Source of the DNA: Betaproteobacteria bacterium
GTDB lineage: Bacteria > Pseudomonadota > Gammaproteobacteria > Burkholderiales > SG8-41
NCBI GenBank assembly: GCA_046339595.1
Contig: JBKDUF010000034.1
Coordinates: 8,963-72,962 of the forward strand
Length of the DNA: 64,000 nucleotides
Direction: 5' to 3'
Below the pieces are notes generated by a model. It had not been told where the DNA came from and did not search any database. It was given only the letters and a program-made list of their open reading frames with translations. The position numbers were made by a program, and so were the translations under genes. Numbering within the stretch: the first letter of the stretch is position 1; every line of letters starts with the position of its first letter. Shown here in pieces: positions 16,313 through 24,487 of this stretch.

Positions 16313-16431
16313 GTACTTGAGGTGTGACATATATCACGCTGCGGAGTGCACTTTCCCTGCATGCTGTGGAACATGTCATGGCGCGCGCGTGACAATCAGG
16401 GTGATGTTGCGACCTGTGATGGAGCGCGGCA

Positions 16432-16850
16432 CAGGGAAAAAATCCCTACCCTGCTGGTGCTGTGCCTGTCTTTCGCGTCGGTCTCCACTGCGGCGGACAC
16501 GGCCCCCGATATGCTGGTGAGGATCGCGTTGGAAGAGGTGCTCGGCGCGCTTGCGCGGGGCCTTGACGGACGCCCGCTGCAAACCATGGTCGAGCAGAAA
16601 GTGCTGCCGTATTTCGATTTCCGCGCCATGACCCGGCTTGCGCTCGGGTGCCACTGGCGCGATGCGACACCGGAGCAGCAGAAAGCGCTGGAGCAGGCTT
16701 TCCGCGGCCTGCTGTTGCGCAGTTGCGACGTGGCGCTGAACGAGGCTGGCCGCGGCGAGCGGCGAGTCGAAGTCCGCCCGCTGGTCCTCAAGCCCGGGGA
16801 CGATTACGTCACGGTGCATGCGCTGTTGCGCGAGGGCGGGCGTCCACCGT
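16432..16850 (+). pseudogene. MlaC/Ttg2D-like periplasmic protein, 3'-truncated
   Basis: Signal peptide, KVLPYFDFRAMTRLALG.HWRDATPEQQ..L...F; homology stops after REGGRPP; no ATG after the GGAG RBS (AGG instead). Confidence 0.8.
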
Positions 16851-17871
16851 ATTGCCGGCGCTGGGCGTGCACGCTATCGACATCACTGCACAGGCCGACC
16901 GCCTGATCGACAACGAGATCGCGGCCATGCGCCAGGCCGTGGCCCGAAGCCAGCGCGTCACGCTGTGGCAGATGCTGGCACTGTTTCCGGTCGCTCTGCT
17001 GCTCGCTGCCGGCTTTACCATGCTCATCGCTAGGCCGGTCCGCGACATCGATCTTGCGCTGCGATGCATGGGGTGCAGCGATTTTGCATCCCCGGTCGGC
17101 GTCAGCGACCCGCGCGACCTGCAGCTGCCGGGGAGGCGCATCGAGTGGCTGCGCCACCGGCTGTCGGAGCTCCAGCAGCAGAAAAACCGGTTCCTGCGCC
17201 AAGTTTCACATGAGCTTAAAACCCCGCTTACCGCGCTGCGGGAAGTTTCGGAACTACTGTCCGAGCGCGCGCTTGGACCGCTGACTTCCGGTCAGCAGGA
17301 GGTTTTGGCATCCTGCGCGGCAACAGCATTGAGTTGCAGTGCCTGATCGAAGACCTGCTGTCCTTTGGCGCGGCCGAATTTCATCGCGGCGCGCTGCGCC
17401 TGGAAACAGTTCAGGTGAGGCGCGTCGTGGCGCGTATGCTGGACGATCGGTACCTCGCGCTGAGGGCGCGGACCCTGCGCATTGCACCCCATATCGAGGA
17501 CGTCATGCTGCAGGCTGATCCGGAAAAACTGCGGGTCATCCTCGACAACCAGCTTTCGAACGCGTTCAAGTTTTCCCCCCGGCGGCGGCACAGTCGGAAT
17601 CACCGCGCGCGCCACTGGTGACCATCTTGTCATGGAAGTCAGCGACGGTGGTCCCGGGATCCCTACTGCGGAGCGCGAACGGGTGTTCGATCCCTTTTAT
17701 CGCGGCCGCAACGCGGACGTAGCGCGGCTGCCCTGATCAGGCATCGGCCTGTCGATCATGCGCGGCTATGGCCAGGGCCACGTTGACATCGCGAAGGAGC
17801 TCGATACCGCCCGGGAGGGTGGTGCGCGGTTGCGGCTGACCCTACCGCTTCGCGCCGGAGGGGATGCCTGA
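16851..17871 (+). pseudogene. GlrK/QseE-like sensor histidine kinase, N-terminally deleted and frameshifted
   Basis: TM-HAMP, IEWLRHRL, RQVSHELKTPL; then frame changes to DNQLSNAFKFSP and SDGGPGIP...VFDPFYRG; in-frame TGA at 17734 before SGIGLSI. Confidence 0.88.
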
Positions 17872-18246
17872 TGCGCGCGGCAATACCGCTGGCGGCACTG
17901 CTGCTCCTGAGTGCCTGCCATGTGCCGCCCGCACAGCAGCCGGCGGCAGCACTGCCACGGCAATCGGCGGACGGCGCGGTCGCCGAGGCATTGGCGCATT
18001 CCACCCGGCTGCGGCGCCTGCCTGCACTTGAACTGCAGCATGAGCAGGAGGTGGCGCGGTGTGGCCTGATCAAAGCTGCGGATGACCGGGTGCGGATGCG
18101 CCATGAGCTGGCGCTGGCCCTGCCTGGCGCCGGCGCCGCGCCGGAGCGAGGTCCAGGCGGCGGCATTGCAGCACAAACTCGATGCGCTGCTGGCACTGGA
18201 ACGAAAACTCGCCGTCAGAGATCGCGTGCCGCAATCCAAACGGTGA
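17871..18246 (+). pseudogene. QseG/YfhG-like lipoprotein, internally deleted and frameshifted
   Basis: Lipobox LLLLSAC; coiled-coil tail ALQHKLDALLALERKL lies in a different frame ending TGA 18246; position between kinase and regulator. Confidence 0.65.
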
Positions 18247-18250
18247 TGCC

Positions 18251-19328
18251 ATGAACACAGCCACGATGATGATGCCCGACCACGCTGGCGCCGGTTTTGC
18301 GCGAGCAGCTGAACTGTCGCGCCATGCCGCAGCCGGCCAGCGACCGCCCGTGCTCGTGGTCGATGACGACCCCGGCCTTCCGAGGCTGATGGAATTGCAG
18401 CTCGATGCCGCGGGCTACCGTGTCATTGGGGTGGACAGCGGTGAGGGCGCGATGGCCCGGCTCGCGTTGTCGCGCCCGCAGGTGGTGGTCACCGACCTGC
18501 AGATGGGCGGCATGGCCCTGTTCGAGGCGATCCGCGCCGAGAATCCCGCTTTGCCAGAGTCATCATGCTGACCGCGCACGGCACTATTCCCGACGCGGTA
18601 TCCGCGGTCAAGAACGGTGTATTCGGCTATTTCGCCAAGCCTTTTGGTGCCAAGGCCCTGCTCGACGAGATCGGCGACATGCCACCTGCACATCAGATCA
18701 AGCTGCTGCGCGCACTGCAGGAACGGCAGGTGCGGCCGGTTGGCGGGTTGCAGGATGTGGCAATCGATGTGCGGGTGATTTCGGCGACGCACCGAGACCT
18801 AGAGGCGGAATTTTCCGCGGGGTGTTTCTGCGAGGACCTGTATTGCCGGCTCAAGATGGTCTGCCTGCGCTTGCCCTGCCTGCAGGAACGGCGCGAGGAT
18901 ATTGCTCCCCTGGTCACGCATTTCCTGAACGAGTGGTGCTGCGCCACAAGAAGCCGGTCGCAGGGCCGGCGCCGGAGGCGATGGAGTTGCTGGTCACCGC
19001 GAACTTGCCCGGCAATATGCGCCAGTTCTACAACGTCGTCGAGCGGTTGGTGGCGCTGGCGACCACGCCGCTGATTCCCGCCGGCCTGATGGAACAGGTC
19101 ATCCGCCGCGAGACCCAGGAAATTCTGCCCTTCGAGCAGGCGCGGTGCCGATTTGAGCGCGAATACCTGGCCCAGCTGCTGAAAAGCACCGATGCCAACG
19201 TCTCCCATGCCTCGCGCATGGCCAAGCACAAATGCACCGAATTCCACAAGCTGCTGCAGCGCCATCAGCTTGATCCCCGGCTGTTCAAGCCGCAGCGCGC
19301 ATGTGCGTTTCGACAGGATCCGTCCTGA
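18251..19328 (+). pseudogene. GlrR/QseF-like sigma-54 response regulator, frameshifted, Walker A/GAFTGA region deleted
   Basis: VVDDDPGL, TDLQM, LTAHGTIPDAV, LDEIGDMP, RVISATHRDL, PGNMRQ, FEREYL..LL, TEFHKLLQRH spread over three frames. Confidence 0.92.
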
Positions 19329-19433
19329 TTCTCATTGCCGCATCGCTGCTGGTTTCCTGTGCCGGCGGCGGCGGGAGAGCCGCACCGGCTTCCAGCTCGC
19401 CCGTATTCAACCTTTCGGGTTCTTCCACGGCCT

Positions 19434-19490
19434 AAGGGAAAGGAAAGGAAAGGAAAGGAAAGGCAAGGAAAGGAAAGGATAGGGAAAGGG
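19434..19490. repeat. (GGAAA)n pentanucleotide simple sequence repeat, about 10 units
   Basis: 5 perfect GGAAA, GGCAA, 2 GGAAA, GGATA, G, GGAAA; near-pure purine tract. Confidence 0.95.
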
Positions 19491-20854: not shown

Positions 20855-20882
20855 TAAAGAAATCCGCTTTTCCTGACGTAAT
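20855..20882 (+). promoter_or_regulatory. sigma-28 promoter of motAB operon
   Basis: TAAAG-N15-GACGTAAT. Confidence 0.7.
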
Positions 20883-20992: not shown

Positions 20993-21844
20993 GTGCTGGT
21001 CATACTCGGTTACATCATCGTCACCGGCTCCGTTCTGGGCGGCTTTGCGCTGGCCGGTGGGCATCTGGCCGCCCTGTTCCAGCCGCTGGAGCTGCTGATG
21101 ATCGGTGGCGCAGCGGTCGGCGCCTTTGTTGTCGGCAACAACGGCAAGGCGATCAAGGCAACGCTGCAGACGCTGCCCAAGACGCTGACCGGATCCAAGT
21201 ACACCAAGGCAGTGTACATGGATCTGATGGCGCTGCTCTACGACATACTAGCCAAGGTGCGCAAGGAAGGCCTGATGGCGATCGAGAACGATGTCGAGAA
21301 TCCGAGTCAGAGCCCGCTGTTCTCGAAGTATCCGCGCATTCTCAACGATCATCATGTCACCGAATTCATCACTGATTACCTGCGGCTGATGGTTGGCGGC
21401 AACCTGAATGCTTTCGAGATCGAGAACCTGATGGATAACGAGATCGAGACCCACCACCACGAGGGTGAAATTCCGATCCATGCCCTGTCCCGGATCGGAG
21501 ACGGCATGCCTGCCTTCGGTATCGTTGCCGCTGTCATGGGGGTTATCAAGACCATGGGCTCGGTTGGCGCTCCCCCGGCAGAACTCGGTCTGATGATTGC
21601 CCATGCCCTCGTCGGCACCTTTCTCGGCATCCTGCTCGCCTACGGTTTTGTCACACCGCTGGCTACATTGCTTGAACAGAAGCTCGGCGAATCAACGAAG
21701 ATGTTCCAGTGCATCAAGGTCACCCTGCTGTCGAGCCTGAATGGCTATTCCCCCGCGCTGGCGGTGGAGTTCGGACGCAAGGTTCTCTATTCCACAGAGC
21801 GGCCGTCCTTCTCGGAACTTGAGAAGCACGTCAAACGCAAGTAA
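20993..21844 (+). CDS. motA: flagellar stator MotA
   Basis: QPLELLMIGGA, RKEGLMAIE, PAFGIVAAVMG, HALVGTFLGILLAYGF, EFGRK. Confidence 0.98.
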   Translation: MLVILGYIIVTGSVLGGFALAGGHLAALFQPLELLMIGGAAVGAFVVGNNGKAIKATLQTLPKTLTGSKYTKAVYMDLMALLYDILAKVRKEGLMAIENDVENPSQSPLFSKYPRILNDHHVTEFITDYLRLMVGGNLNAFEIENLMDNEIETHHHEGEIPIHALSRIGDGMPAFGIVAAVMGVIKTMGSVGAPPAELGLMIAHALVGTFLGILLAYGFVTPLATLLEQKLGESTKMFQCIKVTLLSSLNGYSPALAVEFGRKVLYSTERPSFSELEKHVKRK

Positions 21845-21864: not shown

Positions 21865-22794
21865 ATGGCCGACGAATCACAGCGCCCCATCGTCATCAAG
21901 CGCATCAAAAAGACTGCTGGCGGCCACCATGGCGGTGCTTGGAAGATCGCTTACGCCGACTTCGTTACTGCAATGATGGCGTTTTTCCTGCTGATGTGGC
22001 TGCTCGGTTCGACTACCAAAGGTGACCTTAAGGGGATTGCGGATTTCTTCAACACGCCGCTGAAAGTTGCGCTTGCTGGCGGCATCGGCTCGGGAGACAG
22101 CTCGCACGTGATCAAGGGCGGTGGCAAGGACCTGACGCGAAGTGAGGGACAGATCATGGACGGCGAGCTGCAGTCCGACCGTCGCATTATTAACATCAAG
22201 GCAGCGCAGGCAGAACTGGAACGGCGAGAGGAAATCAAGATGGCGCAGCTCAAGGTGCGGATTGAGCATCTCATCGAGTCCAATCCGGCCTTGCGCCAGT
22301 TCCGTGAGCAGTTGCTTGTGGATATCACCCCCGAAGGTCTGAGAGTGCAGATAGTCGACACGCGCAACCGACCGATGTTCGCCTCGGGTCGCGCCGAGCT
22401 GCAGCCCTATGCACGCGACATCCTGTACGAGATCGGCCGCGCACTGAACGGCGTGGAGAACCGCATCTCCATTGCCGGGCACACCGATGCCACCCCCTAT
22501 GCCTCGGGCGAGCGCGGATACAGCAACTGGGAGCTTTCCGCTGACCGCGCCAATGCCTCGCGCCGCGTGCTGATACAGGGCGGCATGGACGAAGGCCGCC
22601 TGGTGCGCGTGGTGGGCATGGCCGCGGCCGTGCCCTTGGACCGCAAGGATCCCCTCAATCCGCTCAACCGCCGGATCAGCCTGATCGTGATGAACAGGCA
22701 GGCGGAAGAGGCGGTCAACCGCAGCGGCGGCAGCGTCGAGCTTGCCCCGCCCAATCATGTTGATATACCGCGCATCGTCAACGGCAATTCCTGA
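21865..22794 (+). CDS. motB: flagellar stator MotB
   Basis: HGGAWKIAYADFVTAMMAFFL, GHTD, NWELSADRAN, NRRI. Confidence 0.98.
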   Translation: MADESQRPIVIKRIKKTAGGHHGGAWKIAYADFVTAMMAFFLLMWLLGSTTKGDLKGIADFFNTPLKVALAGGIGSGDSSHVIKGGGKDLTRSEGQIMDGELQSDRRIINIKAAQAELERREEIKMAQLKVRIEHLIESNPALRQFREQLLVDITPEGLRVQIVDTRNRPMFASGRAELQPYARDILYEIGRALNGVENRISIAGHTDATPYASGERGYSNWELSADRANASRRVLIQGGMDEGRLVRVVGMAAAVPLDRKDPLNPLNRRISLIVMNRQAEEAVNRSGGSVELAPPNHVDIPRIVNGNS

Positions 22795-23542
22795 GGCCGC
22801 CGCGCATCCGCTGCCTCCGGTGCTGACGGCGCTGCTGCTGCAGGCCGGCTGCGCGCCTGCCGGGCTGGCGCTTGCTGCGCAGTGGCCTGTGTTGCCCTGG
22901 ACCGTAGCTGCCGGGTTGCTCGCGGGGCTGGCGAGCCTTGTGCTGGGGCTGCCGGCATGGTGGCTGGCCATCAACGCGCTGTTCATTCCCGCGCTGGCAC
23001 TGGCGCTGCTCGCCGAACTGCCTGCCACGTTATGGCTTGGGTCTTTTCTGGGCCTGTCCCTGGTGTTCTGGGGTGTCGCGCGCAGCCGCGTGCCGCTCTT
23101 CCTCTCCAGCGAGGCGGCGGGACGGGCGCTGGCCGAACTGATCGGCAGCGGCAGCGAGGTGCGATTTGCCGATCTCGGCTGCGGCGACGGTCGTCTGCTG
23201 CAGAGGCTGTGCGAGCGCTTGCCCCGGCTACAGGCCCTCGGCATCGAATACGCGCCGCTGCCCCGGCTGCTTGCCGGATGGCGCACGCGCCTGATGGGCC
23301 CGCGTTGCCGTGTCTGCTGGGGCAGCCTTTGGCGGCTCGATCTTGGCGGCTTTGATGTGGTTTATGCCTACCTGTCACCGGTGCCGATGCCGGCGCTCTG
23401 GGAAAAGGCCTGCCGCGAGATGGCGCCCGGCAGCCTGTTCATCAGCAATAGCTTTGCGGTGCCCGGGGTTGCTGCAGAGCGCGAGATCGTGCTCAATGAC
23501 GGCTGGGGCGGCGTGCTCTACCTATACCGCATCCGGAGCTGA
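22757..23542 (+). CDS. membrane-anchored class I SAM-dependent methyltransferase (FAM173-like)
   Basis: Hydrophobic N-terminus, then VPLFLS, FADLGCGDGR (motif I), GIE, FDVVYAYL, ISNSF; exact start uncertain, overlaps motB end. Confidence 0.85.
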   Translation: MLIYRASSTAIPEAAAHPLPPVLTALLLQAGCAPAGLALAAQWPVLPWTVAAGLLAGLASLVLGLPAWWLAINALFIPALALALLAELPATLWLGSFLGLSLVFWGVARSRVPLFLSSEAAGRALAELIGSGSEVRFADLGCGDGRLLQRLCERLPRLQALGIEYAPLPRLLAGWRTRLMGPRCRVCWGSLWRLDLGGFDVVYAYLSPVPMPALWEKACREMAPGSLFISNSFAVPGVAAEREIVLNDGWGGVLYLYRIRS

Positions 23543-23545
23543 GCC

Positions 23546-24487
23546 GTGGCGACCGTGTTGCAGCCCGCCAAGGGCAGCGTTGACCATTGGGTGCAGTTGC
23601 TTGGACGCAATGACATGCCGGTGCTCGGACGCACGGTTGCCGAGCTGGCGGCGCTGGCAGCCAACGAGGAGCAGGCCACGCCGCAGCGGGTGGCGGCAGT
23701 GGTGCTGCACGATCCGCTGATGACGTTCAAGGTGCTGCAGTATATCCAGCTCAACCGCCCGGCCCGCCAGAGCACGGAAATCACCACCATTGCCCACGCC
23801 CTGATGATGCTCGGCCTGCAACCCTTTTTCGAGCACTTCAGGGCGCAGCAGACAGTCGAGTCGCGGCTGGGCGCATTTCCGCCTGCGCTGGTGGGGCTGC
23901 GCTGCGTGGCGAGCCGGGCACGCCATGCAGCACTGTATGCGCGCGACTGGGCCGTGCTTCGGCACGACATCGAGATCGACGAGGTGATGACTGCAGCGCT
24001 ACTGCACGATGTGGTGGAGATGATGCTGTGGTGCGCCGCCCCGTTGCAGGCGTTGCGGATAGAGCAGGCGCTGCGTGCAGACCGAAGGCTGCGTAGCGAA
24101 CATGCACAACGAGCGGTTCTCGGGGTCTCCCTGCTTGAGGTGAGCGGCGAGGCCTGCCGGCGCTGGCGGATGCCGGAGGTGCTGCAGTGCCTGATCGATG
24201 ACCACCGCATCAACCGGCCGCGCGAGGCCAACGTTGTTCACGCGGTCGCGGTTGCCCGCCACAGCGCACGTGGCTGGAGCGATCCGGCACTGCCCGACGA
24301 CTACGAAGGCGCGGCCCGGCTGCTCGGCATTGGCAGCGAAGCGGTACGCATGCGGGTGATCCGGGTGGCACTGTCGGCCGCGCGCGAGTGGGAATGGTAC
24401 GGCGTTCGCCCTGCTGCTGCATGGCTACCCCTGCTGCCCGGCTCGGCAGCGCCCGATGGCCGCCTGTTTGCCCTAGACCTGGAATAA
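23546..24487 (+). CDS. HDOD domain protein
   Basis: MPVL, HDPLMTFKVL, TIAHALMMLG, AALLHD, WRMP. Confidence 0.88.
   Translation: MATVLQPAKGSVDHWVQLLGRNDMPVLGRTVAELAALAANEEQATPQRVAAVVLHDPLMTFKVLQYIQLNRPARQSTEITTIAHALMMLGLQPFFEHFRAQQTVESRLGAFPPALVGLRCVASRARHAALYARDWAVLRHDIEIDEVMTAALLHDVVEMMLWCAAPLQALRIEQALRADRRLRSEHAQRAVLGVSLLEVSGEACRRWRMPEVLQCLIDDHRINRPREANVVHAVAVARHSARGWSDPALPDDYEGAARLLGIGSEAVRMRVIRVALSAAREWEWYGVRPAAAWLPLLPGSAAPDGRLFALDLE

Follow-up and report, generated by a model that had tools for sequence, protein, structure and literature searches.

The window analysed here is a stretch of 64,000 nucleotides from the assembly of a Betaproteobacteria bacterium of the order Burkholderiales (GCA_046339595.1, contig JBKDUF010000034.1, positions 8,963 to 72,962 of the forward strand). 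Directly behind the flagellar stator genes motA and motB it carries a gene (22757-23542, + strand) for a predicted membrane-anchored class I (seven-beta-strand) S-adenosylmethionine (SAM)-dependent methyltransferase, an assignment based on sequence, fold and motifs. The protein belongs to a real, widespread and uncharacterised four-helix subfamily of the archaeal-KMT-like group (KMT, lysine methyltransferase) that is tied to MotA1-type stators. Genomic linkage and residue covariation suggest that the enzyme would be a dedicated lysine methyltransferase of the cytoplasmic MotB tail, a reading to which we assign a probability of about 0.55. Within that tail, Lys16 is the most likely target and Lys27 the alternative. 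A broader proposition is that, in many flagellated Beta- and Gammaproteobacteria, a dedicated membrane enzyme methylates MotB Lys16, close to the helix that conducts protons, and thereby tunes stator assembly or activation, while lineages that lost the enzyme repeatedly fixed arginine at position 16 as a stand-in; this we hold tentatively, at somewhat less than an even chance.

Co-occurrence was assessed in 251 genomes sampled evenly from the order to which the window belongs, using a homologue threshold of E <=1e-20. The enzyme was found in 131 genomes and MotA1 in 159; both were present in 129, the enzyme only in 2, MotA1 only in 30, and neither in 90. All 123 strong homologues were in genomes with MotA1 and none was in the 92 MotA1-less genomes of the order, the two enzyme-only genomes having weak matches and both being FliG-positive. 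We do not rely on a Fisher value for this co-occurrence since related genomes are non-independent. Among the 119 genomes in which the gene could be placed, 78 had the order motA-motB-enzyme (1.8-2.9 kb behind the motA start) and 13 had the enzyme directly before motA, so that 91/119 homologues adjoin motAB in two gene orders; in the remainder, the enzyme was on a different contig (19) or was distant or inverted (9). The coupling to motAB that the earlier note had read from the window, and for which it had suggested a count of motB-adjacent homologues, is borne out by these numbers. The evidence for a stator link far beyond chance neighbourhood is strong.

Because FliG (161/251) and MotA1 (159/251) nearly coincide within the order, other orders were examined as well. 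A class sample of 400 genomes yielded 15 genomes outside the order, from 11 families, with a strong match. Full MotA1 was present in 13 of them, one had a MotA1 cut by a contig end, and one (84% complete) had weaker stator-like matches. By comparison, 140 of the approximately 378 enzyme-less class genomes were examined, of which 20 had MotA1, 49 had weaker matches only (stator type unverified) and 71 had none. MotA1 was thus present in 14/15 enzyme-bearing versus 20/69 enzyme-less genomes with any stator-like match. The family f225, which we take to be Pseudomonadaceae-like from its motA-motB-rsgA-orn gene order, showed the same pattern: the gene occurred in 31/121 genomes, all 31 had MotA1, none of the 13 MotA1-less genomes carried it, and 30/31 copies were within approximately 4.3 kb of motA.

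In the window itself, the reading frame at 22757-23542 starts with ATG and encodes 261 amino acids, as do its four nearest homologues (P0002-P0005, 100% coverage). The earlier note had described the gene as overlapping or abutting motB, and its first 38 nucleotides are indeed shared with the 3' end of motB; the same overlap is found at the start of the homologous gene in locus L024. The motA gene (20993-21844, + strand) encodes a MotA1-type stator A subunit of 283 amino acids (TIGR03818, 412 bits against a cut-off of 303.8). The stator B subunit of 309 amino acids is encoded by motB (21865-22794, + strand; NF006548, 429 bits against a cut-off of 277; Pfam MotB_plug and OmpA), with residues 1-27 forming the predicted cytoplasmic tail. 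The methyltransferase gene is single-copy in the host genome, which has one stator pair (a single stator A match by tblastn).

The AlphaFold2 model of the enzyme (predicted local distance difference test score 90.7, predicted TM-score 0.81) has N-terminal helices at residues 21-42, 48-62, 67-85 and 90-110, the second being short (15 residues). We predict these to be membrane helices (residues 21-110, 22817-23086, + strand, including a conserved W68-W69) from the model, from hydropathy (family mean of 1.4-1.8 for the four helices), from charge bias and from conservation; they agree with the several N-terminal transmembrane helices noted earlier. Lysine and arginine are enriched at the N-terminus and behind helix 4, with hardly any in loops 43-47 and 86-89; therefore, both ends and the catalytic domain are predicted to be cytoplasmic. 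The pre-methyltransferase motif and catalytic domain (residues 112-259, 23090-23533, + strand) match, along their entire length, aKMT, the archaeal protein-lysine methyltransferase of Sulfolobus islandicus. All six motifs quoted in the earlier note were recovered, at residues 112-117, 139-146, 162-167, 190-202, 211-222 and 229-236, with core residues invariant or nearly so among 78 homologues. In these 78 rows, D139-x-G141-x-G143 and E164 are invariant. The modelled Rossmann-like fold, with motif I and the acidic residue after beta-2, is that expected of a class I seven-beta-strand enzyme.

The kinship with aKMT that the earlier note had read from the motifs was recovered by sequence and by fold. 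Pfam gave only generic methyltransferase matches, all under cut-off. The best sequence match in the PDB was aKMT (5FA8/5JWJ; residues 112-259, phmmer E 3.9e-7; next non-aKMT-like match 1.1e-6), and a profile of the 78 sequences ranked 5FA8 (5.3e-15), 5JWJ (2.4e-13) and the Salinibacter ruber protein 5BXY (3.6e-9) as its top three. The Foldseek comparison suggested at the outset placed 5BXY and the aKMT entries at ranks 1-5 (E 1.5e-12 to 3.1e-9), and VIA-align against 48,161 representatives scored 5BXY highest (Z 22.0, root-mean-square deviation 1.4 over 142 residues), the runner-up reaching 16.7. Of the NCBIfam families, NF041081 (archaeal protein-lysine methyltransferase) was matched by the most members, 44/78 (best E 3.8e-9), at scores well short of its cut-off. 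The window protein reached 20.2 bits (E 4.8e-4) against the NF041081 cut-off of 200, well below an equivalog assignment. It is therefore a protein built like the archaeal-KMT-like group, with aKMT as its closest characterised relative by sequence and fold, yet no aKMT ortholog.

The likeness to aKMT (5FA8, 5FAD, 5JWJ; NF041081) extends over the entire catalytic domain and takes in the Val-Pro motif ahead of beta-1 (Foldseek TM-score 0.85 by target, root-mean-square deviation 2.0), both being minimal seven-beta-strand domains. However, aKMT is a stand-alone protein of approximately 160 residues lacking an N-terminal membrane part, whereas the window protein has 261 residues, four predicted hydrophobic helices and 23-26% identity to aKMT; 5BXY (158 amino acids) likewise lacks a membrane part. 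aKMT is described as broad in specificity (PMC9006661), whereas the window enzyme is narrowly tied by genomics to one stator type. A closer layout is that of the human ATPSc-KMT (FAM173B) and ANT-KMT (FAM173A), compared here by description only. According to PMC9006661 and PMC10238732, characterised members of the archaeal-KMT-like group methylate protein lysines. The same papers describe the two human members as membrane-anchored, with aKMT as their closest relative (as for the window protein) and with target lysines in inner-membrane energy proteins, one of these being part of a proton-driven rotary motor. They also have an anchor, a pre-methyltransferase segment and a catalytic domain in common with our protein, in which the predicted helix 90-110 leads into the conserved motif at 112-117. 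The differences are that the human enzymes are mitochondrial and have one putative membrane helix versus four in this bacterial protein, and that FAM173B acts on the rotor ring whereas the proposed target here is a stator subunit. No FAM173 entry was among the PDB sequence and fold search matches.

Other motility methyltransferases are known: CheR acts on chemoreceptor glutamates and FliB, which has a conserved iron-sulfur cysteine cluster, on flagellin lysines. The earlier note had set both aside, rightly so. CheR profiles gave no match to the window protein in Pfam or NCBIfam at E <=0.1, nor to the 78 members in NCBIfam at E <=0.001. The fold is a plain class I fold, there is no conserved cysteine cluster (none of the invariant or nearly invariant columns is a cysteine), and flagellin was near the gene in just 3/224 enzyme-bearing loci, 102 of which span at least 8 kb. 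PrmA, the ribosomal L11 methyltransferase, was also considered and rejected: Pfam PrmA gave no match at E <=0.1, while the same profile does detect a true PrmA in locus L234.

Next we asked which stator residue covaries with the enzyme. The whole basic tail motif of MotB had been our first marker, and was set aside: in the first set it was present in 112/116 stators with the enzyme versus 14/30 without, a weak contrast with a non-significant pair test (2 starred pairs), and by reading it also occurs in 11/19 enzyme-less stators of other orders. Only position 16 stood up. In f225 (91 stator loci from 108 MotA1-positive genomes, minus 9 lateral-type second copies), position 16 was lysine in 25/25 enzyme-bearing versus 18/57 enzyme-less stators, the other 39 having arginine. 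This contrast holds within genera g312, g557 and g556 and was the strongest within-genus contrast of 592 columns. On the f225 tree, built with the tail left out, position 16 changed 8 times, never in enzyme-bearing rows. Arg16 in these enzyme-less stators is often followed by Tyr or Phe (L360-L376, L320-L327, L396-L397), and this paired change may replace a modified lysine.

We then used a combined set of 224 rows (119 enzyme-bearing, 105 enzyme-less), from which second copies, 6 genomes with weak homologues and 35 of the 60 Nitrosomonas-rich loci had been removed. Lys16 (codon 21910-21912, + strand) was present in 117/119 stators with the enzyme versus 54/105 without, and 44 of the 51 enzyme-less replacements were arginine. 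The contrast was smaller for Lys15 (115/119 vs 80/105) and Lys12 (117/119 vs 88/105), and Lys27 (codon 21943-21945, + strand), at the membrane interface, is uninformative because it is invariant in all 224 rows. A correlated-evolution likelihood test of our own was run on a FastTree tree of the stator genes, with the 202 variable columns of MotA and MotB serving as its empirical null; this source of the tree and possible false absences of the enzyme in draft genomes both limit the test. The likelihood-ratio test (LRT) value was highest for MotB 47 (28.4, mixed direction), Ala25 (27.6), Lys16 (26.0) and MotA Glu197 (25.1), against 15.4 for the next column, a median of 2.7 and a 95th percentile of 11.2. 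Lys16 thus ranked third of 202 columns and first among the 15 lysine columns, Lys12 and Lys15 reaching 2.8 and 7.7, respectively; Ile28, which like Ala25 flanks Lys27 and is more constrained when the enzyme is present, reached 14.2. Position 16 had been chosen in f225 (LRT 11.5 in that family alone), and the disjoint remaining rows, which serve as the check, gave 11.0 (92/94 vs 36/48). In addition, all 23 genomes in which the enzyme gene does not adjoin motAB retain Lys16 and Ala25, which argues against simple hitch-hiking.

Some further candidates and columns from this comparison are recorded here. MotB K147 was top of the first Fisher ranking, but it is in the periplasmic part and its tree-aware LRT was only 1.6. 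The ATP-synthase c subunit was rejected as a target because none of the non-flagellated genomes searched has the enzyme and because the polar loop of this genome's c subunit has no lysine right behind the conserved Arg-Gln-Pro. MotA Glu197 (21581-21583), in the loop that joins the last two membrane helices, was present in 103/119 versus 49/105 stators; it could be a contact with the enzyme's membrane domain, or linkage noise. A predicted complex of the enzyme with two MotA, MotB 1-62 and SAM gave a value of 0.46, partner-replaced controls 0.00, and a version with MotA replaced and MotB kept 0.59; we do not use these values as evidence.

Several observations weigh against a MotB-tail methyltransferase, and they are best considered together with the explanations that they would favour. 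Since FliG and MotA1 nearly coincide, the order sample alone cannot separate stator from flagellum, and none of the 131 enzyme-bearing genomes of the order lacks both MotA1 and FliG. Moreover, of the best 80 loci from named genomes (mostly Nitrosomonas), 60 had motB directly upstream and 1 had convergent motAB, but 19 were away from motAB. Carriers of the gene include Nitrosomonas europaea and N. eutropha (L034, L046) as well as Azonexus/Dechloromonas. The gene stays behind flhDC alone where motAB has moved (G420, G532), accompanies only the HDOD gene in G421, both apart from motAB, is behind fliA in G078 (84% complete), where no MotA1 was found, and is behind motCD-like genes in G543. The placements in G420, G532, G421 and G078 would suit a protein-lysine methyltransferase whose substrate is a different flagellar component (FliG or the C-ring, FlhC/FlhD, the HDOD protein or flagellin) that is kept in the motAB unit for co-expression. 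We regard this as unlikely: outside the order the gene tracks MotA1-type stators and not any stator, the motAB loci that hold it in f225 and in other orders do not contain the remaining flagellar genes of the query set, flagellin is a rare neighbour, and the MotB tail signal would be left unaccounted for. The linkage and co-occurrence data would fit equally well a cytoplasmic lysine of MotA, where K55, K112 and K281 are conserved at 0.98, 0.95 and 0.97 with the enzyme versus 0.70, 0.60 and 0.60 without (first set), several other lysines are invariant in both groups and so uninformative, and Glu197 is among the top four LRT columns. Yet the highest LRT of any MotA lysine is 4.9 versus 26.0 for MotB Lys16, and we consider methylation of MotA in place of MotB improbable. 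From the earlier proposal of MotA, the KRIKK stretch of MotB or the C-ring as targets, the residue comparison, which covered MotA and MotB, favours the MotB stretch, and specifically Lys16.

The residue statistics also have their contrary side. The independent-pairs test for Lys16 was not significant, either in f225 (3 starred pairs) or in the combined set (11 starred pairs, 2.2 the same way and 0.1 opposite); 54/105 enzyme-less stators retain Lys16, and two enzyme-bearing stators (L213, L215) do not have it. The non-lysine columns MotB 47, MotB 25 and MotA 197 score as high as Lys16, and therefore the LRT also catches other effects. Covariation of Ala25 and Ile28 along with Lys16 fits a footprint over residues 16-28, as might be left by an enzyme that binds the MotB tail as an assembly factor, or that methylates a residue other than lysine (e.g., a histidine of the glycine-histidine stretch), with Lys16 and Ala25 as recognition residues; the residues after beta-4 are also unlike those of aKMT in the alignment. 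Against this rather unlikely alternative, the SAM-binding residues D139, G141, G143 and E164 vary little or not at all across 150 homologues, and therefore catalysis is probably retained, the usual replacement of Lys16 by arginine keeps the charge that a binding site would need, and the characterised relatives are lysine-specific (PMC5828452). A non-protein substrate was also weighed, i.e., that the protein methylates a small molecule, a lipid or RNA and that its link to motAB is inherited gene order. The earlier note had named a small-molecule or lipid enzyme as the structural match that would speak against it; these are clearly lower in fold (Z <=16.7), but the top match, 5BXY, is titled 'RNA methyltransferase'. 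Furthermore, 15 of the 19 unlinked loci, rich in Gallionellaceae, have a common housekeeping neighbourhood, and the single-helix relatives and weak homologues do not adjoin stator genes. On the other hand, no strong homologue was found in the 92 MotA1-less genomes of the order or the 13 of f225, the enzyme, MotA1 and FliG are jointly absent from the same-genus genomes G505 and G593, and adjacency to motAB is kept in two different gene orders, all of which makes a non-protein substrate improbable in our view. As to expression, the contigs of one RNA run (word share 0.06) touched flhD and motA/motB, and none was on the enzyme gene.

If the enzyme is a MotB-tail lysine methyltransferase, it would be co-expressed with motAB from a sigma-28-type promoter, and its membrane anchor would keep the active site at the cytoplasmic face of the membrane, where it would bind the MotB segment 12-28. 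Residues 1-27 would be the sole cytoplasmic part of MotB, just ahead of the helix with Asp32, which is invariant in the alignment and which we take to be the proton-binding residue. In assembled stators, the MotB tail is thought to sit inside the MotA ring, and therefore the reaction would probably precede assembly or occur during it. Methyl groups would be transferred to Lys16 or, alternatively, to Lys27. The constraint on Lys16, Ala25 and Ile28 would represent a footprint of the enzyme across residues 16-28, within which the target may be Lys16, which is lost first and mostly to arginine, or Lys27, which is invariant and flanked by constrained residues. Arg16, frequent in enzyme-less stators, could have arisen under relaxed selection, or it could be a fixed genetic substitute for the methylated lysine. 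Many motile bacteria do without the gene, so that the mark can have no more than a tuning role. Rather than a fast switch, it would probably be a constitutive step of maturation through which stator assembly, lipid contact or activation is tuned. By analogy, a constitutive mark seems at least as likely as a switch, because the targets of ATPSc-KMT and ANT-KMT were found fully trimethylated (PMC9006661).

Searches of listings and abstract openings in the open-licence PMC and bioRxiv literature turned up no account of the gene or of methylation of MotB, and passages of PMC5670224, PMC11813219, PMC9290775 and PMC7801250 mention neither. Of the genomes sampled, about half of those in the order and a quarter of those in f225 carry the gene, and few ion-driven machines have been studied as thoroughly as the MotAB stator. 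As one enzyme and one residue are named, the prediction is directly testable. If true, it would be the first covalent modification of a flagellar stator and a new layer in motor biogenesis, and it would parallel, in bacteria, the way in which enzymes of this group methylate the c-ring of ATP synthase. Bacterial genetics could then also serve to model the human FAM173 enzymes; what their marks do mechanistically to ATP synthase and the ADP/ATP carrier is described as unclear (PMC9006661, PMC10238732).

The window was also scanned for the sigma-28 signal of the operon proposed in the earlier note. A strict sigma-28 consensus had 0 matches across the window, whereas a looser pattern, composed only after the site upstream of motA had been seen, had 4 matches versus 0.06 expected, upstream of motA, flgM, fliD and fliS. 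The motA-upstream candidate (20855-20881, + strand) is one of these 4, and the looser pattern is also found upstream of motA in 8/59 related loci. A sigma-28-type promoter ahead of motA is therefore plausible as judged from the pattern matches. Scans for sigma-70 promoters and terminators gave no signal over chance.

The family has relatives outside the stator-linked set, and both groups described next were excluded from the residue tests. A sister subfamily of 170-200 amino acids, with a single hydrophobic helix, is found in other classes of the phylum and also has aKMT as its first match (E 1e-7); no stator gene was within 1.5 kb in the 11 loci examined. These single-helix proteins (L288-L298) have a FAM173-like layout and no conserved neighbour that hints at a target. 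Weak full-length homologues (90-107 bits; L219-L224) have nucleotidyltransferase, transglycosylase, ParB and SSB genes as neighbours, which hints at integrative elements, and they are possibly a separate subfamily. The Atlas search returned unnamed methyltransferase clusters only, with PF29244 named for the shorter relatives. Fused or longer forms of 507-2000 amino acids were not found at E <=1e-10 (weak evidence), and a plasmid collection gave no match to the enzyme.

The gene order in the window is flhD, flhC, motA, motB, the methyltransferase gene, an HDOD gene and flhB-flhA-flhF-flhG-fliA, the names flhA, flhF, flhG and fliA having been assigned from translations and Pfam matches. The HDOD-domain protein gene (23546-24487, + strand; Pfam HDOD E 4.8e-18) starts 3 nucleotides downstream of the methyltransferase gene. 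An HDOD gene follows the enzyme gene in many loci and is absent from Nitrosomonas and flhDC-type loci. It is found beside motAB in two layouts: behind the methyltransferase as in the window, and divergent upstream of motA in enzyme-less Gammaproteobacteria (L240, L242, L245, L246, L250, L252, L253, L255, L258; L234 is also listed). The HDOD protein is possibly a second stator-associated factor; another, different HDOD protein influences swimming of P. syringae (PMC11813219). In G543, the motC/motD-like pair behind fliA (L229:4937-7399) has a B subunit without a basic tail, and a MotA1 pair is 15 kb off. In G316 (L125:8749-11877), two tandem flhDC pairs are upstream of the enzyme and motAB. Upstream of flhD in the window, MlaC-like, histidine-kinase, response-regulator and sigma-54-activator pieces are spread over short overlapping open reading frames (16346-19330), a cluster that looks frameshifted or decayed, followed at 19440-19482 by a short GAAAG-type repeat run that is read as repeated ERKGK at the end of an open reading frame. 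Elsewhere in the same genome (G000:C27:27992-34403), six weak class I methyltransferase matches are arranged in tandem.

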